Positions 14,897 to 61,604 of a DNA stretch of 64,000 nt are shown in pieces. Position 1 is the stretch's first letter. Every line of letters starts with the position of its first letter. Source of the DNA: an uncultured Nitrososphaerota archaeon (GTDB lineage: Archaea; Thermoproteota; Nitrososphaeria; Conexivisphaerales; DTJL01); NCBI GenBank assembly GCA_963842885.1, contig CAWJIE010000004.1, forward strand, positions 224,001-288,000. The letters are read 5' to 3'. Made by a program: the position numbers and the translations under genes. The notes beneath the pieces were generated by a model. It was given only the letters and a program-made list of their open reading frames with translations. It searched no databases and was not told where the DNA came from.

Positions 14897-15409
14897 ATGA
14901 GAGCCGACAGGCTACAGCTGGAGGCTTCCTTTGAGTACTTCTATGGGGAAGGGGTGGCAAGGCATCTCCCTTGGAGCAGGATCACATGCATCAGGTCTCG
15001 GAAGAGCCAGAGGATGAAGAAGGCCCTACTCGACGACCGGCTGTTGGCGACTGTGAGGGAGGACGGCAGCATCGCGTACACGCTGGAATGCGCGAAATAC
15101 CTGATGAAGAGTGCGGCCTTCAGGGAGAGCTGCATAGTCGTCAACGATGACGCTGCGCAGTTCGTCGTGAGGGGGAAATCGCTCTTCTCCAAGCATGTGC
15201 TCAGTGTGGGCGCCAACGTCAAACCCGGTCTGGAGGTCTGTCTGCTGGATGGGAAGGGGGAGCTCCTAGCTGTCGGCAAGGCCATACTTCCCAGGGGCTA
15301 CATGGGAAGGATGCAGAGCGGGGCTGCGGTGCGAGTGCGAGAGGGGACCCGTTCTACAGCTGCAGGAAAGGATTTAAGAGCCGAAACGGGGAAGGCAACT
15401 CTGACTTGA
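14897..15409 (+). CDS. PUA-domain protein (archaeosine TGT C-terminal-like)
   Basis: LLATVREDG, GKSLFSKHV, LLAVGKA, AVRVREG; ATG at 14897. Confidence 0.85.
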   Translation: MRADRLQLEASFEYFYGEGVARHLPWSRITCIRSRKSQRMKKALLDDRLLATVREDGSIAYTLECAKYLMKSAAFRESCIVVNDDAAQFVVRGKSLFSKHVLSVGANVKPGLEVCLLDGKGELLAVGKAILPRGYMGRMQSGAAVRVREGTRSTAAGKDLRAETGKATLT

Positions 15410-15738
15410 TGGACAACAGGCAGGCCCGGAGAATGATGGAGCGGATGGGCCTGAACATGAACGAAATCAAAGATGTGAAAGAGGTAGTCATTCTCACATC
15501 AGAGAAGGAGATCCATCTGGAGAAGGCGTCGGTCTTCGAAATCAAGGCCAAGGACACGCGCGTCTTTCAGGTCACAGCGGAGAATGTCACGGAGAAGACC
15601 ATCGCCGCTCCGAAATTCACCGAAGAGGACGTCTCCCTAGTGGTAACGAGCGCCAACGTCAGCCGGGAGAGGGCCATCTCGGCACTAGAGGAGACCGGCG
15701 GCGACATAGCGCTCGCCATCCTACGCCTGAAGCCATAG
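15406..15738 (+). CDS. nac: Nascent polypeptide-associated complex protein
   Basis: RRMMERMG, EEDVSLV, GDIALAIL. Confidence 0.95.
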   Translation: MMDNRQARRMMERMGLNMNEIKDVKEVVILTSEKEIHLEKASVFEIKAKDTRVFQVTAENVTEKTIAAPKFTEEDVSLVVTSANVSRERAISALEETGGDIALAILRLKP

Positions 15739-15762
15739 GCCGCGGAACGTTCCTTCCTGGAT

Positions 15763-15857
15763 TGTCAAAACCTGTTGACCTGATGCGTTGAGGCGTCTCC
15801 TGACGGTCGTCGCGTCTCATCGTATGTGGAAAGGGCATTTGTCAACATTGATTAACC
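15763..15857. promoter_or_regulatory. Putative operator motifs upstream of nrdJ: TGTCAAAA (15763), TGTTGACC (15773), TGTCAACA (15840); TATA-like TTTTAAG at about 15896
   Basis: Same motif and 10-bp spacing as the array at 30669-30686. Confidence 0.45.
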
Positions 15858-15921
15858 AAAAACGCTAATAAAGGGCCAAACCATCTGGTGGCGGCTTTTA
15901 AGAGGCTAGTGGTTAAACAGC

Positions 15922-18501
15922 ATGGCGGTCCTTTCGTCAAGAATCAAGTCAGTCCGCAAGCGCGACGGCAGGGTTGTAGCGTATGACAGCAGCAAGATAT
16001 CTGAGGCCATCTGGAAGGCCATCAAGGCCACCGGTGGCAAGGACAGGTCGACGGCCGTCGAACTCTCGCTCAAGGTCAACGAAATCTTGGAGAAGCGGTT
16101 CGGGGAGGGGGCCGTGCCTTCTGTCGAGGATGTGCAGGACGCCGTCGAGCATGTTCTGATAGAGGGAGGATATGCCAAGACCGCCAAGGCCTACATACTC
16201 TACCGCCAGAAGAGGGCCGAAATCCGCGAGGAGAAGATGAAGATCCTCGAGAAATCGGACATCGACGAAGTAGACAAGAGCTTCGATAGCAACGCCCTCA
16301 AGGTCCTCAGGGCGCGATATCTGCGCAAGGATGAGAACGGCCATGTCTTGGAGTCGCCCAAGGAGCTCTTCATGAGGGTGGCCCTGCACACCGCATTGGC
16401 CAGCATCCTCTACGATCCTAGGGTTTTCGACGTCAAGGGAGGACAGCCCACAAAGGAGGCCCCTGAAAACGTCGATCTCATGGCGTATGCGGACCTGGGC
16501 GTGGGAAGGTTCAAACTTAACCAGTTCCACGTGGAAGCTCTTCTGCGTGTCTTCAAACGGTTCAACGCCTCCGGGAAGTCCAAGGTGTCGTGGCAGGAGC
16601 TGCTGGAGATGTTCAGGAGAGGGGATTTCACCTCTTACGAGAAAGAGGTGGATGACTACCAGACGCTCATGGTCAGCAAGCATTTCATGCCGAACACTCC
16701 GGCATTGGCCAACTTCGGCAACGTGTTGGGAATGGGCTCGGCCTGCTTCGTACTGGACGTCGCTGACTCCATAGACGACATAATGGAGACGCTGAGGAGC
16801 GCGGCGATAATATTCAAGGCTGGAGGAGGGGTCGGCTACAACTTCTCCAAGCTGAGGCCTGAAGGAGACTTCGTCAAGAGCACGTCGGGCATCGCTTCGG
16901 GTCCCGTCAGCTTCATGCGACTGTTCGACACCATGACCGAAGTGATCAAGCAGGGAGGGATAAGAAGGGGCGCCAACATGGGCATCCTCAACATCAACCA
17001 CCCCGATATCGAGAGCTTCATCAAGGCTAAGGAGGGGAACAAGGCGCTCAGGAACTTCAACATATCCGTCCTCGTACTGGACGATTTCTGGAATTACTAC
17101 AACAAGAACGAACCGTATCCGCTGGTGAACCCCAGGACACATGAAGTGACGCGCTATGTGAACCCCAAGCAGCTCCTCGACATGATCGCTTTCCAGGCGT
17201 GGGAGAGCGCCGAGCCGGGGGTCATCTTCTCCGACAAGGTCAACGAGTTCAACCCCTTCCTCAAGTCGCTCGGCCCCATAGTGACCACCAACCCATGCGG
17301 AGAAGTCCTGCTCTACCCCAATGAGTCATGCAACCTGGGAAGCATCAACGTGGCGGCGTTCACAAAGGAGGACGACGATGGGAACGTCACCTTGGACTGG
17401 GATGGCCTGAGGGACACGGTCGAGATGACGACCAAGTTCCTCGACAACGTGATCGACATCAACCACTACCCTCTCCAGGCTATCGAGGATATAACCCTGA
17501 AGACGAGGAAGATAGGGCTGGGGGTGATGGGGATGGCCGACATGCTCTTCGAGATGGGCGTGGCGTACAACAGCGAGGAAGGGCTCAAGTTCATGGAGCG
17601 GTTGATGGAGTTCGTCAACTACCATTCGAAGAAGGCCTCCATCAAGCTCGCGAAAGAGCGTGGTGTCCTGCCGTCCTTCGAAGATAGCAGCTACAAGGAA
17701 GGGAAGTTGCCGTTCGGAGGTTTTGCGGACCAGTCCTCCTGGCACTTCGACTGGAAGGGGCTGGCGGAGGAGATAGCGCGAGAGGGAGTGAGGAACGGTT
17801 ACACCACCGTCATCGCCCCGACGGGGAGCATCTCGATGATAGCAGGATGCAGCAGCGGCATAGAGCCGGTCTTCGCCCTCGTCTACGAGAAGAATGTATC
17901 GATAGGGAGCTTCTACTACGTTGACACTGCCTTCGAGAAGGCGATGAAGAAGGAGGGTCTCTTCGATGACGACCTCCTCAAGCAGATAGTCTCCAACCAC
18001 GGCAACATAGGGGGCGTGTTCTACCTGCCCGAGAAGATCAAACATGTCTACGTCACGGCCATGGATATCGGCCCTGAAGACCACGTCAGGGCGATTGCGG
18101 CCTTCCAGAAGTGGGTCGACTCCAGCATCTCAAAGACGACAAACCTACCTGCTGAGGCCACCGTGGAAGACGTGAAGAAAGTGTACATGCTCTCCTACGA
18201 GCTGGGATGCAAGGACGTCACGGTGTACAGGGACAAGTCCATAACGAGCCAGGTCTTGCGCACACCGGCGTCAGGAAAGGAGGAGAAGGGTCCTGGGCTG
18301 GCGCCGCAGAAGACCGGTCCCACCCCTCTCGCCGTGCACGCTCCCGTTTCGTCTCCGCTCCAGACCTTCAACGCCCGTCTGAGCTTGGATGGCAAGAACG
18401 GCAGCCTGACCAACTGCCCCTCCTGCAGCACCAAGTTGGAGTTCAAGGAAGGCTGTGCGACATGCCCCGGCTGTGGCTGGAGCCTGTGCGTCAGCGCCTA
18501 G
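15922..18501 (+). CDS. nrdJ: Class II (adenosylcobalamin-dependent) ribonucleotide reductase with N-terminal ATP cone
   Basis: VRKRDG cone, FMPNTP, SACFV, RRGANM, TNPCGE, CNLGSIN, APTG, C-terminal Zn/CxxC tail. Confidence 0.96.
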   Translation: MAVLSSRIKSVRKRDGRVVAYDSSKISEAIWKAIKATGGKDRSTAVELSLKVNEILEKRFGEGAVPSVEDVQDAVEHVLIEGGYAKTAKAYILYRQKRAEIREEKMKILEKSDIDEVDKSFDSNALKVLRARYLRKDENGHVLESPKELFMRVALHTALASILYDPRVFDVKGGQPTKEAPENVDLMAYADLGVGRFKLNQFHVEALLRVFKRFNASGKSKVSWQELLEMFRRGDFTSYEKEVDDYQTLMVSKHFMPNTPALANFGNVLGMGSACFVLDVADSIDDIMETLRSAAIIFKAGGGVGYNFSKLRPEGDFVKSTSGIASGPVSFMRLFDTMTEVIKQGGIRRGANMGILNINHPDIESFIKAKEGNKALRNFNISVLVLDDFWNYYNKNEPYPLVNPRTHEVTRYVNPKQLLDMIAFQAWESAEPGVIFSDKVNEFNPFLKSLGPIVTTNPCGEVLLYPNESCNLGSINVAAFTKEDDDGNVTLDWDGLRDTVEMTTKFLDNVIDINHYPLQAIEDITLKTRKIGLGVMGMADMLFEMGVAYNSEEGLKFMERLMEFVNYHSKKASIKLAKERGVLPSFEDSSYKEGKLPFGGFADQSSWHFDWKGLAEEIAREGVRNGYTTVIAPTGSISMIAGCSSGIEPVFALVYEKNVSIGSFYYVDTAFEKAMKKEGLFDDDLLKQIVSNHGNIGGVFYLPEKIKHVYVTAMDIGPEDHVRAIAAFQKWVDSSISKTTNLPAEATVEDVKKVYMLSYELGCKDVTVYRDKSITSQVLRTPASGKEEKGPGLAPQKTGPTPLAVHAPVSSPLQTFNARLSLDGKNGSLTNCPSCSTKLEFKEGCATCPGCGWSLCVSA

Positions 18502-18503
18502 GG

Positions 18504-20561
18504 TCAGGCAAGGGGAGCAGTAGCCCCACCGCATAGGCCGCAGCGCTCAGTTCCAGCGACTTCCTTGTTTCCGCATTTCTTGCATAGAGCTATCAGCGGT
18601 CTGATAGTGAAGTGGGGGAGGCGCACATTTGCCTTTTCGATGAGCTTGGCAGCGTCGTTCAGGTCGGTGATTGGAAGGGACAGCCGCGCAAGCACTCCTC
18701 CGCCGATACTGCCGTCCAAGTCGTCCAGCCGCGCACCTGTGGACTCCGAATCCAGCTCCTTCGAGTCGATGGAGAAGGCCTGGCCGTACTGCGAAATGCT
18801 GAGGTTCTTCATCTTGGCCCTCCCGAACCTTTCGACATCGAGCTGGGGGAACCGGATGGCGCTGTCGTCGATGGTCAGCACCAATGCGAACTTCTCATCG
18901 CCCTCCTTGCCAGCCGTTTCGAGGTACTGGTTTGCCGAGATAATCGTCTTCTCCTGCAGCTCCGCCAGCTCCTTGGTGGACGAATCTGGGCTTACCAGCT
19001 TGAGCGAATCCTCGAGCCCTGTCAGGTTCACCCTCAACAGGGGAGACTCGGAGTAGAGGAGGTTGCTCAGGACGTCGAGGGCAGGGAGGAGGCCGTTCTT
19101 CATGTTGTTCTGTATGAGGCGGCGCCTCACCCGTAGCGCGTTGACGGCGTTTTCGAGTTGCATCGTGACCCGGGCGCGGAAGTATACCTCGTCGTTGTGA
19201 GCGTCAAGAGCTATGCGCGGAAGGTTGATCGATATAGAGTCCAGGACCACGGGGCCGCCCTTCTTGAAGTCGTCGACGCTCAGGCCCTGGAAGGTCCTCC
19301 GGCGGCCACTCCCCTTGGACAGGGATATCATCCCGTTGTTCCTCGCTATCTCGGCCAGAGGCCTGTAGGCTGACTTCTCCAGTTTCTCGGAGTTGATGAT
19401 GGCCAGACCTATCGAAGGTGATGGGGTCGCCTTGACGTAGTCCAAGTATCCTCTGAAGAGTGAGTTGAAGATGCCGCCGGTCGTCTTCGCTGCGTCCACT
19501 TCGAGCTCGACCTTTGGACGCTCCGAGCCCTCCGGATAGGCATAGGCCATGAGATAGAAGAAGGAAGAGTAACCCTTGGCGTCGAGGTCAAGCTTCTGAG
19601 CGAGATCTGTGAAGCCCGCAAGGAAGATCTCTCTCCCCGCCTCGCGCGTCAGCAGATAGCTGAGCGACAATAGCTTGGTCAGGTTCTCTTCGTCCGTGTT
19701 GTCGTAGCCTTCTCTGGGCGTGTGAGGGAACTTCGCGCCCAGGCGTGACAGGGAAAGCGACTGGTCGCTGATGTTGATGAACAGAGCATCAGGACGTAGC
19801 CCCCAGTAGTTGACGTTGGCGATGTGGATGTCGCCTGAAAGATGGGAGTCTACGACGTCTCGGGGCAGCTGTATCAGCATGAGGTACTCTGAGAGCACGG
19901 AGCCCGCCGTCTGGTTGAAGACGCCCTCAAGTCCGTAGGGCCCTTCGCCTAGCTTCTCGAGGTTCTCCGTTACGTCGTAGACGGGCATCCCTAGCCGGCT
20001 CAGGCGGTGCCGGTACTCCTCCAGACCCTCCTCGATCAGGATCGAGTTCACCAGCTCCCTGATCAGGGGGGCCGTGAGGTAGGCAGTCTGAAACTTGTAG
20101 ATCCTGGATTCGGCTTCGCTGGAGATCCTCTGGGCCAGCTCCACGGGCATCCCGGCCTCGGTGACAAGAGAATGGATTATCTTGTCGGTGGTGAACTCCT
20201 CCATCCTGTGGCGGGAGCTTCGGACGAAGAGCCTTCCGCTCTCCAGGAGGGCCTGCTCCTCTATCTGCTTCGCCGCGTTCAGGACCAGCCGACCCAGCGT
20301 GGTGAGCATGTACTTCCGCTCGGCCCGGTTCTGAGCTATCAGGTTCTGCCTGAGCAGCTTCCGAAGATGGTAGGCGAACTTGCCCGACTCCTTCTTCGAC
20401 TTGAATCCGGCCAGCGTCTTCAGCTCTGAATAAGTCATCGGCCCTTTGGCGTTGAGTATCTTCAGTATCTCAAGGCGGCTGGGGGAAGCGATGACGGAGA
20501 AGATAGTCTTCACGCGGCGAATGGAGACCTGAGTGCTCATAGAACCACTTATTGACATCAC
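18504..20561 (-). CDS. ArsR-like winged-HTH + ATP cone + degenerate NrdD-fold protein, predicted catalytically inactive (start could be 20558 or 20540)
   Basis: SRLEILKIL...FAYHLRKL HTH; VRSSRHRMEEF...LTAPLIRELVN cone; HLSGDIHI and SINLPRIA NrdD motifs; only 4 Cys, all in the terminal CKKC/CGLC. Confidence 0.85.
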   Translation of the reverse strand: MMSISGSMSTQVSIRRVKTIFSVIASPSRLEILKILNAKGPMTYSELKTLAGFKSKKESGKFAYHLRKLLRQNLIAQNRAERKYMLTTLGRLVLNAAKQIEEQALLESGRLFVRSSRHRMEEFTTDKIIHSLVTEAGMPVELAQRISSEAESRIYKFQTAYLTAPLIRELVNSILIEEGLEEYRHRLSRLGMPVYDVTENLEKLGEGPYGLEGVFNQTAGSVLSEYLMLIQLPRDVVDSHLSGDIHIANVNYWGLRPDALFINISDQSLSLSRLGAKFPHTPREGYDNTDEENLTKLLSLSYLLTREAGREIFLAGFTDLAQKLDLDAKGYSSFFYLMAYAYPEGSERPKVELEVDAAKTTGGIFNSLFRGYLDYVKATPSPSIGLAIINSEKLEKSAYRPLAEIARNNGMISLSKGSGRRRTFQGLSVDDFKKGGPVVLDSISINLPRIALDAHNDEVYFRARVTMQLENAVNALRVRRRLIQNNMKNGLLPALDVLSNLLYSESPLLRVNLTGLEDSLKLVSPDSSTKELAELQEKTIISANQYLETAGKEGDEKFALVLTIDDSAIRFPQLDVERFGRAKMKNLSISQYGQAFSIDSKELDSESTGARLDDLDGSIGGGVLARLSLPITDLNDAAKLIEKANVRLPHFTIRPLIALCKKCGNKEVAGTERCGLCGGATAPLA

Positions 20562-20614
20562 TTGCTATATCTAGGTCTAAAAAGGTTTACCACTCGGTTG
20601 GCTGCTGTGAAGGC

Positions 20615-20692
20615 TGGTGGGGCCGGGCGGATTTGAACCGCCGATCACCAGCGCCCGAGGCTGGTAGCGTAACCAAGCTAGCCCACGGCCCC
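20615..20692 (-). tRNA. trnP: tRNA-Pro(CGG), CCA encoded
   Basis: Reverse complement GGGGCCG...CCAGC-CT-CGG-GC-GCTGG...GGCGG-TTCAAAT-CCGCC-CGGCCCC-ACCA. Confidence 0.95.
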
Positions 20693-20818: not shown

Positions 20819-21895
20819 ATGAAGATCGTCGTCACCGGCATCAGCGGGGCGGGCCGCGGCTCCTACCTGTCAGAGGTCGAGGGCCTAGCCAGGGCGGACG
20901 GGAGGAGCATCAGGATCTTCGAGACCGGCGACATGATGTTCGAGACCGCCAAGAAGCTGGGCATCGAGATACCGGAGGATAAGATCCTTGACCTGTCACC
21001 TTCTACGTTGAACTTCCTTAGAACGACCGTATTCGAGCAGATCATTAGGGAGTCCAAGGAGGTGGAGGACATCGTCATCAGTACCCACGCGTGTTTTCGC
21101 TGGAAGAAGCACATCATCCAGGCCTTCGACTTCCACTACCTCGACCAGATTCGTCCTGACGTCTATGTTTCCATCATCGACTCCATCACTTCGATAAGGG
21201 CCCGGCAGGAAATGACGTCGCAGTGGAGGGGGCAGCTCTCCATGAAGGACATTCTGGTATGGAGAGACGAAGAGGTGTTCGTGACGAAGTCGATAGCGGA
21301 CTTTCAGAGGAGGACGTTCTACATCATACCCCGCGACGAACCCCCCGAGACGCTATTTCGCCTCCTCTATCGTCCGGGTACAAGGAAGGCGTACCTGAGC
21401 TACCCGATGACGCACACCGGAACGGATGAAGAAGATGTGAAGAGGAAGGACGCTTTCAGGGACAGGTTGCGCGACGCAGGGATGGTCGTGTTCGATCCCA
21501 TCTCCATAGGGGATGGCGAGCTCTTGGCTTTCTTGGCCGACGCTAGAAGCAAAGGGGAGAGGACGATAGCCTATTCGAAGGGGAGGACGACCGTGAAGTT
21601 CGACATAAAGGAGGCGGAGGAGGTGAGCGACGACGTCAACGACCAGATCGTCGCCAGGGATTATCAGCTCATCGACCAGAGCGACATGATAGTGGTCTAC
21701 TACTTTCTCCCCGTCATGTCGCCGGGAGTGCTTTCCGAGATGACCTATGGTTTCACGAACAAGAAGAACGTCTACGCCGTGTTCAAGGGTCAGGAGTCGC
21801 CATTCTTCAGATACTACTCCACCAAGATATTCCAAGACGAAGATGCCCTCCTTGGGTACCTGAAGGAGAAGGCTGGAGGGGAGCCAACCAGCTGA
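20819..21895 (+). CDS. Fusion of an archaeal adenylate-kinase-like P-loop domain and a nucleoside 2-deoxyribosyltransferase/N-glycosidase-like domain
   Basis: VTGISGAGR and ISTHACF (AdkA-like); AYLSYPMT, FDP, RDYQLIDQSD, SPGVLSEMTY (NDT-like). Confidence 0.75.
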   Translation: MKIVVTGISGAGRGSYLSEVEGLARADGRSIRIFETGDMMFETAKKLGIEIPEDKILDLSPSTLNFLRTTVFEQIIRESKEVEDIVISTHACFRWKKHIIQAFDFHYLDQIRPDVYVSIIDSITSIRARQEMTSQWRGQLSMKDILVWRDEEVFVTKSIADFQRRTFYIIPRDEPPETLFRLLYRPGTRKAYLSYPMTHTGTDEEDVKRKDAFRDRLRDAGMVVFDPISIGDGELLAFLADARSKGERTIAYSKGRTTVKFDIKEAEEVSDDVNDQIVARDYQLIDQSDMIVVYYFLPVMSPGVLSEMTYGFTNKKNVYAVFKGQESPFFRYYSTKIFQDEDALLGYLKEKAGGEPTS

Positions 21896-21909
21896 AGACG
21901 ACGATCTAC

Positions 21910-22323
21910 GTGGGCGGGCTGCTTATAGACGGGGGGAGCATCTTGCTGAAGACGGGAGGAGGGGCTTCCCAACAGTGGCTTCGCCCCCCAGGCAAGTACC
22001 TCGAGGGTGATGAGACCCTTGAGATGGCGGTGTCCAAGGGTTTCAAGGAGGAGACCGGATGGACGTGCGCCGTGAGGGACCTGGCTTACGTCATAGAGTC
22101 GTTCAAGGGCGACGGTGAACGGGAACTGGGCGTCTACTTCCTGGTCGGCGTTCCTTCGCTCAGGGACCGGAACGTCGTGGAGTCAGGGCTCCGATTTGTC
22201 TCAGTGGAGGATATGATAACGATGGATGTGCGCCCTGCCGTCCTGGCTGGGAAGATATTCGCAGACGAAAAGAGGGGCTCGTGTGGATCCGCCACCTACC
22301 TAGTCAACCACTGGAATGATTGA
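21910..22323 (+). CDS. Nudix hydrolase with a degenerate Nudix box
   Basis: PGKYLEGDETLEMAVSKGFKEETGW. Confidence 0.7.
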   Translation: MGGLLIDGGSILLKTGGGASQQWLRPPGKYLEGDETLEMAVSKGFKEETGWTCAVRDLAYVIESFKGDGERELGVYFLVGVPSLRDRNVVESGLRFVSVEDMITMDVRPAVLAGKIFADEKRGSCGSATYLVNHWND

Positions 22324-28734: not shown

Positions 28735-28829
28735 TGGTAGCGAGGAGTGGATTTGAACCACTGCTCTGCGGGTGTCTCAACCATCGGTTTATGAGCCCGC
28801 CGGGATAGGCCTGGCTTCCCCACCTCGCT
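28735..28829 (-). tRNA. trnM: Initiator tRNA-Met(CAT) with a 16-nt 37/38 intron, CCA encoded
   Basis: A1-U72 acceptor AGCGAGG/CCTCGCT; three G-C pairs at the base of the anticodon stem GCGGG/CCCGC; intron AACCGATGGTTGAGAC. Confidence 0.92.
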
Positions 28830-28888: not shown

Positions 28889-30196
28889 TCAGAGTTCGTA
28901 GGGCAGCGTCGCAGGCTTGCTAAGATGGCGTCGAGCTCGGGGCGGAACGGCGTAGAGTCCAGGAGAGATGGCTCTCTCGAGCTTCACCTTGATTGGCTGC
29001 AACGACATGGACTTGAATTTGCAGGCTGGGCACTGGAATCCCTTCCCCTTGCCTTCCGATTTCATGGTCTTCCCGCACTCGGGGCAGCCGGGATTCCTCG
29101 TGACCTCCAAGGTGGTCAGGGAGAGGACCTCCATCTTCTCGACGTTGATGGTCAGAGGGGTGACCGGTTTCTCCTTGACGCCGCCATAGACTCTCACAGC
29201 ATCGCCGGGCACAAGCGCCCTGCCGACGTCTCTGAAGCCCCTAGTGGGCTCGTAGATGGCACAGTCGACGGAGCCGCTGTCGTCTTTTATCCTGAATATC
29301 AGGTGGCCGCCGCGGATGACATGGGGCTTGGCGCACACGATGCCGGAGACCTTGACGGTGGTCAGAGGCGTTATCTTCCCAGCCTTGGCGTCGGAGATGT
29401 GGGCGTCGGTGGCTTGATTGGTTTCGTAAATCTGGAAGCGTTCGACGGGCTGAAGTGGCTTCACCAAGCTGAAGGCTCGCTCCAGATAGTGCGGTTTGAA
29501 TGCTCGAATGCCGAAGTAGACCGGGCAGGGAGTGTGCGGCATTATCCTGACCTCGCCGGTGTTCTTGTCCAGGTTGTCGAAGGTGAAGGGGTAGGTGGCG
29601 TCGTTCATGGCAACTATGGACCCCAGCTCCATCTCTCTCCGGGTCCCGACGAACTGGGGGGTGCGATAGGCTATCAGCTCGTATGTGCGGCCGTATTCCA
29701 ACCGGTTGCCTATCGCGGCTAGGGCGCCGATGATGCCGCGACCCAGCTTGAACTTGTGGACCTCTATTCCCAGCGAGTCCGCCACCGCGTCCGCATCCTC
29801 GATGGTCATCATCTCCTTGACCACCCGAGAGGAGAACTCGCCGAGGGAGACTGGTATCTCTTCGCCCACGAAGAAGGCGACGCCAGACTCCGTCCCTTCG
29901 TCGTCCAGCATGGCCATCTCCTTGACGCGTTTGAGGACCAGCTCCTTGATCTGGGGCATGATGGCCGGAGAGGCGCGGAACTTGAACGACAGGGCGGCGT
30001 TCCCTCTAGTCTTGAAGGGGCAGTTGGGGTTCAGTCGGATGAGCCGGGGGAAGCCCTCCAATTCCAGGCCGAAAGTGCTTTCAATCTCGTCGATGAGGAC
30101 GGCCGCGAGATAAGTCGTGCACATGCCTTCGGAGGAGTCTGTGTCGTCCAGACCGACATGGAGGAGGGGAAGCAGGGTCTCCTTCTTTGACGCCAA
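28889..30196 (-). CDS. tiaS: tRNA(Ile2) agmatinylcytidine synthetase
   Basis: GLDDTDS..GMCTTY, RLNPNCPFKTRGNAA, TNQATDAH, RRHLSKP. Confidence 0.96.
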   Translation of the reverse strand: MASKKETLLPLLHVGLDDTDSSEGMCTTYLAAVLIDEIESTFGLELEGFPRLIRLNPNCPFKTRGNAALSFKFRASPAIMPQIKELVLKRVKEMAMLDDEGTESGVAFFVGEEIPVSLGEFSSRVVKEMMTIEDADAVADSLGIEVHKFKLGRGIIGALAAIGNRLEYGRTYELIAYRTPQFVGTRREMELGSIVAMNDATYPFTFDNLDKNTGEVRIMPHTPCPVYFGIRAFKPHYLERAFSLVKPLQPVERFQIYETNQATDAHISDAKAGKITPLTTVKVSGIVCAKPHVIRGGHLIFRIKDDSGSVDCAIYEPTRGFRDVGRALVPGDAVRVYGGVKEKPVTPLTINVEKMEVLSLTTLEVTRNPGCPECGKTMKSEGKGKGFQCPACKFKSMSLQPIKVKLERAISPGLYAVPPRARRHLSKPATLPYEL

Positions 30197-30530
30197 GGGT
30201 CGATTCTCCCTCTCCAGTATTGATTATTTGAGCATATGGTTGGGGGAAAAGTCGTCTAACCCTCCCTTATCTGCGTCCGCCCACGCCAGCGCTCCCGGCT
30301 TGGTCGATTTCATGCATGTCCAGCGACGGAGGCTTTGAACTAGCGGTGTGATGATGGGAAAGTGCGGCTGAGGGCTACCAGTGTCATTCATGCTCTCCTC
30401 TCAGTGCCTTGGGCTGTCTTGAGCGGAAGGTTGGCATCCCAAACTTACGTAGATTGGTCAGGAGTGAAAGCTTCCGAGTCATCCTGGTCTTGATCCTCTG
30501 CTGTCATGGCGAGACTTGTATGCCGGCCAA

Positions 30531-30775
30531 GGCGACACTCTTTGACACCCCTTACGGGAGGATTTGCGGCCCACCAGACGACGGGCTGATGATTTCTTTG
30601 GCTCGTTAACAGGCTGTCTTGACACCCTCCCCACGGCACTCAGAGCCTGTATAGTGAGTTTTTTGAGGTGTCAAAAGGTGTCGACAGGGTGCCGGCCAAA
30701 GTGTCGACACGGTGTCGACACCCCGTCAACAGGGTGTCGCGCAAGAGCCGACACCCGCCATGACGGTGTCAGACC
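30531..30775. repeat. Non-coding array of GTGTCRAC/TTGACAC motifs with a ~11-bp period and inverted arms
   Basis: Units start at about 30668, 678, 689, 701, 712, 723, 734, 745, 755 and 766; inverted copies at 30531, 30541, 30604 and 30618. Confidence 0.8.
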
Positions 30776-31037
30776 AAGGGCAGGGGAAGGCCGGGTCCTT
30801 CCAAGTCCGACAAATAGGACTCGAACCCAATTCGGTACGAACCCCTTCGGGCCCACCACTCGGATCCCAATCCTGAATCAGAGTTAGTTCCTATCCTCCT
30901 GACGCCAGTCAAATCCCCATTTCTGCTGGGGGGTTCTTGCTTGGCCTCTCGGTCGACATCGGAGCCAGTTATGCAACCTTTTCATCTATGCTGATTGAGT
31001 CTAATGAATAGAAGGGAAAACTCGTCAGAACAGGGGC

Positions 31038-31271
31038 CTACTCTTCGACCACTATCATCGTCAGAGTGGAGCGTACCTTCTCCAGTCGCCTTATGTGCCA
31101 GGTGATGGTCTCCTTGACCTTCTCCATCGTGTCGGCTTCGACCTTCAAGATGAGATCGTACACACCGTACACCACGTAGACCTCCGTGACGTTTGTTATC
31201 TTCTTCACTTCGGCGACGAGCTCCTCCTCCGCGCCCAAATCGGCGTTAATCAGGACGAAAGCCTTTGGCAA
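31038..31271 (-). CDS. Stand-alone Lrp/AsnC ligand-binding (RAM) domain protein
   Basis: AFVLIN...VYGVYDLILKVE...IRRLEKVRSTLTMIV. Confidence 0.92.
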   Translation of the reverse strand: MPKAFVLINADLGAEEELVAEVKKITNVTEVYVVYGVYDLILKVEADTMEKVKETITWHIRRLEKVRSTLTMIVVEE

Positions 31272-31334
31272 TACTATCTGCCTAGCAGATTAATAGAAGG
31301 TGATTTTAAGCATTTGGGAGAATCGCAGAGAAAA

Positions 31335-31878
31335 ATGAGCGATGAAGAGCCGGGAAAAGCTAAACTGTTCGTGCTACACCTGCGGCAGGACGATCCCTCC
31401 AAGTGCACGGCGTCGAAGCTCAGGCGCCTGGGCAAGGTAGGCTTCCTCTCCAGGCACAGCCAACGCGGGCTGCTGCTCGACCCGTACTGCGATACCTCCA
31501 TTTCCCGCACCGACAGGGAGACGGTGCTCTCGGAAGGCCTCACGGCGATCGACGCCAGCTGGAAGAAGGCCGTCGAATCGTTCAAAGGCATCAGATGGAG
31601 GAGGCGATCGTCGGCGGGCGCTCCCCTATCTCGTCGCGGCTAACCCGACCAACTACGGCATCCCGGTGAACCTCTCGACCGCCGAAGCGCTGGCCGCGGG
31701 GCTCTTCATCGTGGGGCTCGGCGAACAGGCGGAGGAGGTCATGGGCTCTTTCAGGTGGGGTCACTCCTTCTTCGAGCTCAACCTGAAGTACCTGGAGGCG
31801 TACCGCAGGGCCGATTCCAGCTCCGGCGTCGTCGAAGCCCAGCGGGCATTCATGAGGGAGCTGGGCTTTGCAGTCTAA
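31335..31878 (+). CDS. tsr3: 16S rRNA aminocarboxypropyltransferase Tsr3 (DUF367), frameshifted near 31597
   Basis: QDDPSKCTASKL, IDASW, then RALPYLVAANPTNYG, LSTAEALAA, FRWGHSFFELN. Confidence 0.88.
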
Positions 31879-61463: not shown

Positions 61464-61604
61464 CTGACATCAACTGCAAAAGGCGACCACACTCTTAACT
61501 GCTTGGACCGGTTAGTGGAAAACTTGTGCCACATGGGTTTCGGTGGAATGCCTCGTTCCTTGGTCTGTCAAAACGTTAAATCTTCAGCTTCAGATAGTTA
61601 CCGT

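Follow-up and report, generated by a model that had tools for sequence, protein, structure and literature searches.

Conserved operator-like palindromes upstream of nrdJ in a Nitrososphaerota archaeon, and a candidate wHTH/ATP-cone-like/NrdD-like regulator encoded beside them

Introduction

How is the ribonucleotide reductase (RNR) gene of a Nitrososphaerota archaeon controlled, and which protein reads its promoter? The question is raised by a stretch of 64,000 nucleotides (the window, G000:C4:224001-288000; GenBank contig CAWJIE010000004.1) from the 2.03-Mb archaeal assembly G000 (GCA_963842885.1, 58% G+C), an uncultured member of the order Conexivisphaerales. The window carries nrdJ, which encodes a class II-type RNR, and tail-to-tail with it a gene whose product joins a winged helix-turn-helix (wHTH) domain to an ATP-cone-like stretch and an NrdD-like body. 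In the literature searched, no description of RNR control was found for archaea outside the few lineages with bacterial-type NrdR. A first interpretation made from the letters of the window (the sequence-only reading) had proposed that nrdJ and the neighbouring gene form a regulon of that gene's product.

Results

A conserved palindrome precedes nrdJ

The nrdJ orthologues were taken with their flanks from 40 relatives, and the element was first spotted by reading their upstream regions. The conserved unit at nrdJ is a 20-bp palindrome, TTGTCAA-N6-TTGACAA, hereafter the box. The window holds two copies of it, a distal one and, 77 bp downstream, a proximal one (Table 1). The right end of the proximal box touches an A-rich stretch resembling a TFB recognition element (BRE), which lies before the TATA-like CTAATAAA; the proximal box and the TATA-like box are about 20 bp apart from centre to centre. 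Here and throughout, the positions of TATA, BRE and transcription start were read by eye from the sequence. The distance from the distal box to the TATA-like box is about 97 bp. In family f1 this distal copy has no TATA of its own, and the orthologous site is kept in the other f1 genera.

The box was searched for in the region from -260 to +20 of nrdJ in 27 loci of the relatives, with G000 left out. With a 6-bp spacer and at most one core mismatch, it was detected in 16 of the 27 loci (18 matches, 2.4 per kb), compared with a background of 0.015 per kb elsewhere in the nrdJ loci. Spacers of 4, 5, 7 and 8 bp gave no locus at all under the same limit (0/27). When two mismatches were allowed, the 6-bp spacer was found in 24/27 loci and the other spacers in 3-5/27. 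The relatives are not independent of each other; at least eight genera contribute matches, and their intergenic sequences are otherwise unalignable. Enrichment upstream of nrdJ orthologues, which the sequence-only reading had predicted for its own shorter motif, thus holds for the box in its redefined, spacer-6 form.

The arrangement of the box differs between families. Two copies exist in f1, the strong one just past the stop codon of the NAC gene, and a single copy in the proximal position in f2 and f4 (e.g. ...TTGTCAAACCTATTTTACAAAAACATATATTTT). In f4 loci the box stands directly 5' of the TATA-like box (...TTTTACAAAAA-CATATATTTT), and the proximal placement relative to the TATA-like box is the same in f2, f4 and the window.

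A matrix built from 17 unique sites, all from the relatives, was used to rank the whole 2.03-Mb genome. The two nrdJ sites took ranks 1 and 2 (20.6 and 20.2 bits), and the third site reached 16.5 bits. The exact pattern GTYAA-N6-TTRAC has four occurrences in the genome, among them the two nrdJ sites, which are the sole intergenic ones by crude calls of open reading frames (ORFs). In conclusion, our results indicate that nrdJ is preceded by a real, conserved operator-like pair.

A similar sequence was also observed at another RNR gene. At L071 (G015:C7), GTAAACATACGATTTAACAAAAACGCTTTAGG 5' of a cone-less class II RNR of f3 is close to the proximal box of the window together with its BRE-like stretch. 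This RNR belongs to another subtype (36-40% identity across its C-terminal half).

The neighbouring gene encodes a candidate regulator

In the numbering of the 685-residue ORF, the candidate regulator matches DUF7347/HTH_20 at residues 19-96, has an ATP-cone-like stretch at 112-183, and matches NRDD at 433-678. The NRDD match covers profile positions 272-528 of 562, which is the second half of the model only. The protein ends 8 residues past the last Cys of CKKCG...CGLCGG, a Cys-rich ribbon. ATG 20540 was taken as its start, since in three genomes of the same genus a base is missing upstream, which leaves them no in-frame start there. The ATP-cone profile PF03477 scored 25.1 bits in one scan, under its cut-off of 25.8, and 29.0 bits in another, over the cut-off. 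No chain sequence of the PDB was matched by phmmer at E <= 0.01.

In NrdD, the glycyl-radical loop sits C-terminal, after the Zn-binding cysteines. An active class III RNR (NrdD) was considered for the candidate regulator and rejected, since the NRDD match is partial and the chain ends before the place for this loop. As far as can be judged from the sequence, its NrdD-like part could not work as a glycyl-radical enzyme. We infer that nucleotides may be the ligand sensed by this protein.

Three proteins with an ATP-cone are encoded in the genome, and the candidate regulator alone among them has a DNA-binding domain (HTH). The other two are the nrdJ product and an ATP-cone/Mrr_cat protein. The latter (G000 C5:406368-407198; L083:862-1692, minus strand) consists of an ATP-cone, an Mrr_cat restriction-endonuclease-like part and an AF1548-like C-terminal domain. 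NrdR (TIGR00244) had no match in the genome, which is 87% complete, while control genomes did match. Neither a wHTH/ATP-cone/NrdD-like regulator nor this box is mentioned in the literature searched, including the accessible parts of PMC3019208, PMC2795772 and bioRxiv 10.1101/2022.04.23.489257.

Box and candidate regulator are associated

The regulator gene adjoins nrdJ in 10 of the 31 genomes holding both, comprising all of f1, one of f2 and one of f7. The box also occurs upstream of the regulator gene itself. With a 6-bp spacer and at most two mismatches it was found there in 22/29 relatives (3-7/29 at other spacers), and with at most one mismatch in 5/29 (0-1 at other spacers). These own-promoter boxes span five lineages, namely f1, g7, g9, and g6 and g8 of f3; their positions differ between lineages and hold steady within each. 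In f1, GTAAA-N6-TAGAC lies over the TATA-like TTTTAGA at -34 to -42 (7/8 loci). In g7 and g9 the box is at -2 or -3, over the start codon, and in f3 TGTCAA-ATATAT-TTAAAC lies at -50 to -53. In the window, a weak box was detected in the regulator promoter (Table 1). The sequence-only reading had instead placed the autoregulatory site at TGTCAATA, about 25 bp downstream of this weak box. We could not uphold that assignment, since TGTCAATA is a half-site only, and the better match of this promoter is the weak box. The half-site is kept within the genus alone, where the entire spacer is conserved.

The distribution of the two among genomes is also in agreement. Within the order to which the window belongs, 28 of 35 relatives have the regulator protein. 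The sister order keeps nrdJ in 17/17 genomes and has no regulator in 14 f5 genomes and in the one f9 genome; two f10 genomes gave weak N-terminal matches alone. A spacer-6 box with at most two mismatches was found there in 1 of the 16 evaluable nrdJ loci, at -197. Two sister-order loci had been dropped, because the N-terminus was outside the match, and two had no N-terminal match. The co-occurrence of box and HTH-NrdD gene that the sequence-only reading had expected is therefore seen at the level of orders, the sister order lacking both. What survives of its regulon idea is the conserved element shared by the nrdJ and regulator promoters; its definition of the motif and its link to a repeat array (see below) do not.

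We consider it probable that the nrdJ operator pair is bound by the neighbouring wHTH/cone/NrdD-like protein, whose own core promoter has a weaker box. This protein is the most likely binder of the nrdJ boxes, because it is encoded next to nrdJ in f1, f2 and f7, carries a box in its own promoter in five lineages, is absent together with the box from the sister order, and is the only protein of the genome with both HTH and ATP-cone. The 7-6-7 palindrome would fit a dimeric winged-helix protein.

Several points weigh against this assignment. In 21 of the 31 genomes with both genes, among them all f3 and f4, the regulator gene lies away from nrdJ. Families f6, f7 and f8 bear the regulator and have no box with at most one mismatch before the RNR gene (L027, L028). 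The highly conserved cone region of the regulator lacks the K-R-D-G of the nrdJ cone (VRSSRHR versus VRKRDGR). In the window, the own-promoter box is weak (two core mismatches) and coincides with the probable BRE/TATA, and in f1 the conservation of the own-promoter box could be that of the core promoter. The co-occurrence contrasts one clade with another and essentially amounts to one evolutionary event. Regulator and box are linked by association only. Also, the core GTCAA-N6-TTGAC with at most one mismatch occurs three times in the window, with 1.55 expected, and 20 of 100 shuffles reach three. The operator signal rests on place and conservation rather than on window counts.

Proposed action at the nrdJ and regulator promoters

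If the wHTH/cone/NrdD-like protein is the binder, a nucleotide-sensing dimer would occupy the site just 5' of BRE/TATA at nrdJ and set its transcription. For archaeal factors (e.g. SurR and TrmBL1), a site immediately 5' of BRE/TATA often means activation, and a site over the TATA box or the start means repression. The box centre lies about 20-21 bp upstream of the TATA-like centre at nrdJ and at the cdvB-like promoters described below, with the right arm abutting or slightly overlapping the BRE. On the basis of such positions relative to BRE, TATA and start, activation of nrdJ by aiding TFB/TBP binding is favoured, if only mildly. Repression of nrdJ by blocking the BRE would be the main alternative, which we consider less probable but well worth keeping in mind. 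At its own gene, where the box lies over the TATA-like box (f1) or the start (f4), the same positional argument favours auto-repression, by which the regulator would shut down its own expression.

Replication and division genes as possible further targets

To what extent does the box occur outside the nrdJ locus? In G000, 23 of 2225 promoters had a matrix score of at least 11.1. Eight of the 23 belong to nrdJ, the regulator, orc1/cdc6, a cdvB-like gene, an ftsZ-like gene, GINS(-MCM), RFC and a dcd-like gene, where GINS and RFC share one site. The scores were 14.9 bits for the tubulin/FtsZ-family gene, 14.5 for the Snf7/CdvB-like gene (which is followed after 20 bp by a Vps4/CdvC-type gene), 13.4 and 12.5 for orc1/cdc6, 12.9 for the regulator, 11.9 for the dCTP-deaminase-like gene and 11.7 for the divergent GINS(-MCM)/RFC pair.

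Some of these boxes are conserved in the relatives. Upstream of cdc6, the spacer-6 box with at most one mismatch was found in 7/29 loci versus none at other spacers, at -92 to -98 in f1 and f3 and at -71 to -80 in f4 and f6. Upstream of the cdvB-like gene, with cdvC next to it, all 10 loci had the spacer-6 box with at most two mismatches, nine of them at -63 to -81, and the box in these promoters is directly upstream of the TATA-like box. The ftsZ-like gene had the spacer-6 box in 6/7 loci. Candidate wider targets are thus orc1/cdc6, the cdvB-like/cdvC pair, the ftsZ-like gene and possibly GINS-MCM.

On these grounds one may imagine a 'dead ribonucleotide reductase' acting as a nucleotide-sensing factor that couples nrdJ to replication licensing and division, which would be an archaeal G1/S-type regulon in a Cdv-bearing lineage. 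We regard this extension as tentative, and rather doubtful at present. The gene class was picked after the matches were known. Seven promoters tested prospectively (PCNA, PriS, two PolB, PolD-DP2, ThyX and Tmk) had no box (P = 0.15-0.98). RFC was dropped as a target, as its enrichment was not specific for the spacer (8/29 at N6, equal to N8), and the dcd-like gene has no orthologue among the 40 relatives. Other high matrix matches adjoin unrelated genes (VTT/MscL, glutamine synthetase, Fer2/PKD paralogues and unknowns).

Two side observations concern these genes. GINS (Sld5-like) and MCM overlap by 4 bases and are divergent from the RFC small subunit (G000 C4:55658-59325); both the same genus and genus g4 (L176, L179) keep the intergenic GGTTAATTAATGATTACC between GINS and RFC, which fits the box only weakly. 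A frame of 1709 codons (G000 C5:348312-353405) has DNA_pol_B matches at two separated places and may be an intein-bearing PolB.

The boxes at cdc6, cdvB-like and ftsZ-like genes also bear on the identity of the binder. Being spacer-6-specific and conserved in position, they fit a general cell-cycle factor as well as one dedicated to RNR, and this too counts against the assignment made above. The operator might be real and be bound by another factor of the order, e.g. a cell-cycle regulator, with the wHTH/cone/NrdD-like gene as a mere target. Such a reading would agree with the separation of the regulator gene from nrdJ in most of the genomes holding both, and a box in the promoter of a gene does not prove binding by the product of that gene. 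However, no other candidate was found, and the adjacency, the own-promoter box in five lineages and the joint absence in the sister order favour the wHTH/cone/NrdD-like protein, which is the sole HTH protein of the genome with an ATP-cone. We consider another binder unlikely, although it is the strongest of the rival explanations.

The palindrome is probably not explained by the core promoter

Could the sites be due to chance, or to a special core promoter, for instance one in which a TFB paralogue reads an extended BRE, without any dedicated operator? The window counts are not significant and the proximal box abuts the BRE-like stretch, as this explanation would have it. It also has a precedent in the TFB2-specific promoter architecture reported in Sulfolobus, according to the accessible part of bioRxiv 10.64898/2026.09.06.749720. 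However, the box is palindromic and specific for the 6-bp spacer, and the distal f1 copy, which lacks a TATA of its own, stands far 5' of the TATA-like box. The two sites are also the best in the genome for a matrix derived from other genomes, and the box is far denser upstream of nrdJ than elsewhere in the loci. We therefore hold the absence of a dedicated operator to be very improbable.

The 8-bp motif and the array at 30.6 kb

The sequence-only reading had taken the 8-bp motif TGTYRACA as the operator of the HTH-cone-NrdD protein, and the array at 30.6 kb as its high-capacity site. By direct reading of the window, all of the strings that it quoted are present where it placed them. These are TGTCAAAA-CC-TGTTGACC at 15763-15780 upstream of nrdJ, TGTCAACA at 15840, TGTCAATA on the minus strand at 20550-20557, and TGTCAAAA-GG-TGTCGACA at 30669-30686, whose 10-bp offset is identical to that of the nrdJ pair. 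The motif itself is at chance level in the window, with 5 matches against 2.33 ± 1.67 expected (a count that 12 of 100 shuffles reach). The array holds three of the five, and the remaining two (7506 and 15840) are what chance would give; the conserved unit is the 7-6-7 palindrome instead. GTGTCGACAC was also rejected as the motif, with 23 window matches at two or fewer mismatches against 27 expected. A further TGTCAAAA at 61566 (C4:285566) had been suspected to be fortuitous, rightly so, as it has no partner half-site and nothing there reaches 10 bits.

In the array, GACAC units on the left side and GGTGTC units on the right side surround a core of about 100 bp. Its first unit GTGTCAAAAGGTGTCGACAG fits the box with one core mismatch (30668-30687, 13.9 bits, genome rank 8), which is the point in favour of a binding site. 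However, no other position in the array reaches 6 bits, and the main iteron period of 11 bp gives a spacer of 7 rather than 6. Four genomes of the same genus, one of them with a contig end at this place, have no match to the array, and they retain the regulator and the nrdJ boxes. The single fit, the absence from these genomes and the different iterons of its paralogues (below) speak against a high-capacity operator.

The array is a member of a family of at least seven elements in the genome. Matches to parts of it lie at six or more further sites (C3:316770, C7:9430-9720, C8:12773, C5:496854, C2:168555 and C5:80929; see Table 1 for the copies). The elements have the core in common, flanked by iterons in inverted sets whose word differs per copy (GACGTG in C3; GGGTGTA and GCCGTAA in C8; GCCGTAA in C5; CCACAC in C2 and C5b). 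In each copy the right arm opens with X-AAAAGG-X, and the left arm has its reverse complement, where X is for instance GTGTC, GGGTGTA or GCCGTAA. TGTCAAAA-GG-TGTCGACA is this junction in the copy with the word GTGTC, and the equivalent junctions score 7.4, -2.3 and -3.8 bits in C7, C8 and C5a. Because the word X differs from copy to copy at the same junction, the likeness between array and nrdJ site is an accident of this copy's word. Taken together, TGTYRACA with the array as its high-capacity site retains hardly any probability.

In most copies, a conserved box of the elements' own (…CACTTCAAGTGGTAAT…GGTGGCTATTG…) comes next, and after it a small ORF of low complexity, with the iterons running on into it. 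Pfam gave nothing in two of the small ORFs, and Rfam gave nothing for the elements. A viral or plasmid nature was considered and dropped, as a pattern of 21 specified bases from the conserved box had no match in viral_contigs or genome_contigs (its own genome possibly excluded). A replication origin at the array was likewise dropped, since the window has no Orc1/Cdc6 gene and an origin-like region exists at G000 C4:345.8-346.4 kb.

The box is distinct from the origin recognition box

The probable replication origin of G000 (C4:345850-346400) lies 5' of orc1/cdc6 (C4:344642-345868, minus strand) and has 3-4 repeats of the origin recognition box (ORB) type, consisting of a C-string and TTTCCACTGG. 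GTTAAC is present there in 5 copies within 1 kb, with 91 in the 2.03-Mb genome. The cdc6 box is inside this origin-like region, once or twice between the ORB repeats, and its sequence is unlike ORB. We rejected the box as the ORB of Orc1/Cdc6, as the origin has separate TTTCCACTGG-type repeats with a C-string. An ORB variant bound by Orc1/Cdc6, which would then double as nrdJ regulator, is supported by the presence of the box upstream of orc1/cdc6 in several lineages and by an Orc1/Cdc6 paralogue recorded as a transcription regulator in Sulfolobales (accessible part of PMC6061795), but it is highly improbable given the classical repeats (CCCC...TTTCCACTGGAAA, 3-4 copies) of this origin and the f5 genomes, which retain orc1/cdc6 with ORB-like repeats and yet have no box with at most one mismatch at cdc6 (2 loci) or nrdJ.

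Features of the window and genes around nrdJ

The gene assignments around nrdJ are Pfam profile matches. For nrdJ the E-values were 7.9e-159 (Ribonuc_red_lgC), 5e-21 (ATP-cone) and 8.8e-18 (Ribonuc_red_lgN).

Table 1. Positions of the features discussed (window numbering unless a G000 contig is given)
Feature	Position	Strand	Basis or remark
NAC gene	15406-15738	+	Pfam
Distal box TTGTCAAAACCTGTTGACCT	15762..15781	.	perfect GTCAA-N6-TTGAC core; 24 bp past NAC stop codon; best matrix match in genome, 20.6 bits
Proximal box TTGTCAACATTGATTAACCA	15839..15858	.	1 core mismatch, right arm TTAAC; second-best matrix match in genome, 20.2 bits
TATA-like box of nrdJ, CTAATAAA	15865..15872	+	by eye; same CTAATAAA in same-genus loci L002-L004
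nrdJ, class II-type RNR with N-terminal ATP-cone	15922..18501	+	Pfam
Candidate regulator gene (wHTH/ATP-cone-like/NrdD-like), tail-to-tail with nrdJ	18504..20540 (longest ORF 18504-20561, 685 residues)	-	Pfam and start comparison
Lone half-site TGTCAATA, between TATA-like box and ATG 20540, near inferred transcription start	20550..20557	-	no partner arm at spacer 6
Weak box in regulator promoter, minus-strand TGGTAAACCTTTTTAGACCT, overlapping TATA-like TTTTTAGA	20573..20592	.	12.9 bits, genome rank 14, promoter-wise P = 0.005
tRNA-Pro	20615-20692	-	5' of regulator gene
GACAC/GTGTC iteron array	30533..30775 (element 30520-30790)	.	one copy of repeated element family, outside regulon
Other element copies (G000)	C3:316770-316877, C7:9350-9720, C8:12760-13030, C5:496854-497130, C2:168375-168642, C5:80769-80999, C4:204001-204056		common core and iterons

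Past the regulator locus, at 20819-22323 (+), an AAA_17/nucleoside 2-deoxyribosyltransferase-like gene and a NUDIX gene form a neighbourhood of nucleotide metabolism. No box precedes either of them (matrix scores -3.9 and -4.7 bits). Rfam, run over the window and the repeated elements, gave only RNase P RNA, 5S rRNA and tRNAs, and no riboswitch or other RNA at nrdJ or the array.

Two further observations were made near the array. A Tsr3-type gene (Fer4_RLI and Ribo_biogen_C; 31095-31878, +) is split between two ORFs (31095-31643 and 31666-31878) and lacks profile positions 38-65 between them, which is a frameshift or an assembly error. A tRNA of 95 nt with the anticodon CAT (28735-28829, -), called as tRNA-Met, probably carries an intron and adjoins the TiaS gene (28889-30196, -). 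TiaS acts on the CAU anticodon of tRNA-Ile2; because of this and the direct adjacency, the tRNA may be tRNA-Ile2.

Discussion

The nearest known system is bacterial NrdR, which contacts DNA through a Zn-ribbon; its tetramer occupies a pair of 16-bp boxes, between which lies a linker of 15-16 bp, or about three turns of the helix (accessible parts of PMC9110341 and PMC13584703). As far as the same partial texts describe them, the NrdR boxes are partially palindromic and lie near or over the transcription start. The system described here resembles NrdR in its palindromic operator before RNR genes, in a presumed binder with an ATP-cone-like stretch (here scoring at the Pfam threshold), in a regulator often encoded beside the RNR gene, and in the probable control of the regulator's own gene, so far as the available portions of these papers allow the comparison. 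In contrast to the Zn-ribbon of NrdR, the present candidate has a winged HTH (HTH_20/DUF7347) and a large NrdD-like body. Its boxes also differ, being 20-bp 7-6-7 palindromes at an offset of 77 bp, both 5' of the TATA-like box, with a single copy in f4. Two features of an NrdR regulon, conservation upstream of RNR genes and co-occurrence with the regulator, were both observed (16/27 and 24/27 loci versus 1/16 in the sister order), which speaks for a similar way of working rather than for membership. Judged by its domains and boxes, the present system is an analogue of NrdR, not a member of its family.

The candidate also recalls the ArsR/SmtB type, whose winged-HTH proteins bind inverted repeats as dimers. 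Its N-terminal domain matches HTH_20 and DUF7347, and the inverted-repeat operator suits a dimer. Unlike ArsR/SmtB proteins it has no metal-sensing module, and the effector part would be the cone-like domain together with the NrdD-like barrel.

A short box common to cdvB-type division genes, here found also at replication-related genes, is reminiscent of the aCcr1 box and the TFB2 promoters of Sulfolobales, as covered by the accessible parts of PMC9976878, PMC13199686 and bioRxiv 10.64898/2026.09.06.749720. However, the factor families (ribbon-helix-helix for aCcr1, a TFB paralogue for TFB2), the motif and the lineage all differ, according to the available parts of PMC9976878 and PMC13199686. 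RNR was not described as an aCcr1 target in the portions of this literature that were available (PMC9976878, PMC13199686, bioRxiv 10.64898/2026.09.06.749720).

For eukaryotes only an analogy can be drawn, in that a box precedes both RNR and an origin-licensing gene while the proteins are unrelated. The G1/S boxes (MCB/MBF, E2F) of eukaryotes co-regulate RNR, CDC6 and replication genes. Here, unlike there, seven further promoters of DNA-synthesis genes have no box.

For RNR control in this order, the outcome is a 20-bp operator of defined sequence, a named protein as its candidate binder and a short list of targets. A false lead has also been removed, as the 30.6-kb array is no binding sink for the nrdJ regulator. 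According to the part of a review that was available (PMC7617429), archaeal cell-cycle control is otherwise known from Sulfolobales and haloarchaea only. If it is true that the box governs orc1/cdc6 and the Cdv genes, it would be the first cis-element in this branch of the archaea that joins dNTP supply to the start of replication and to division.

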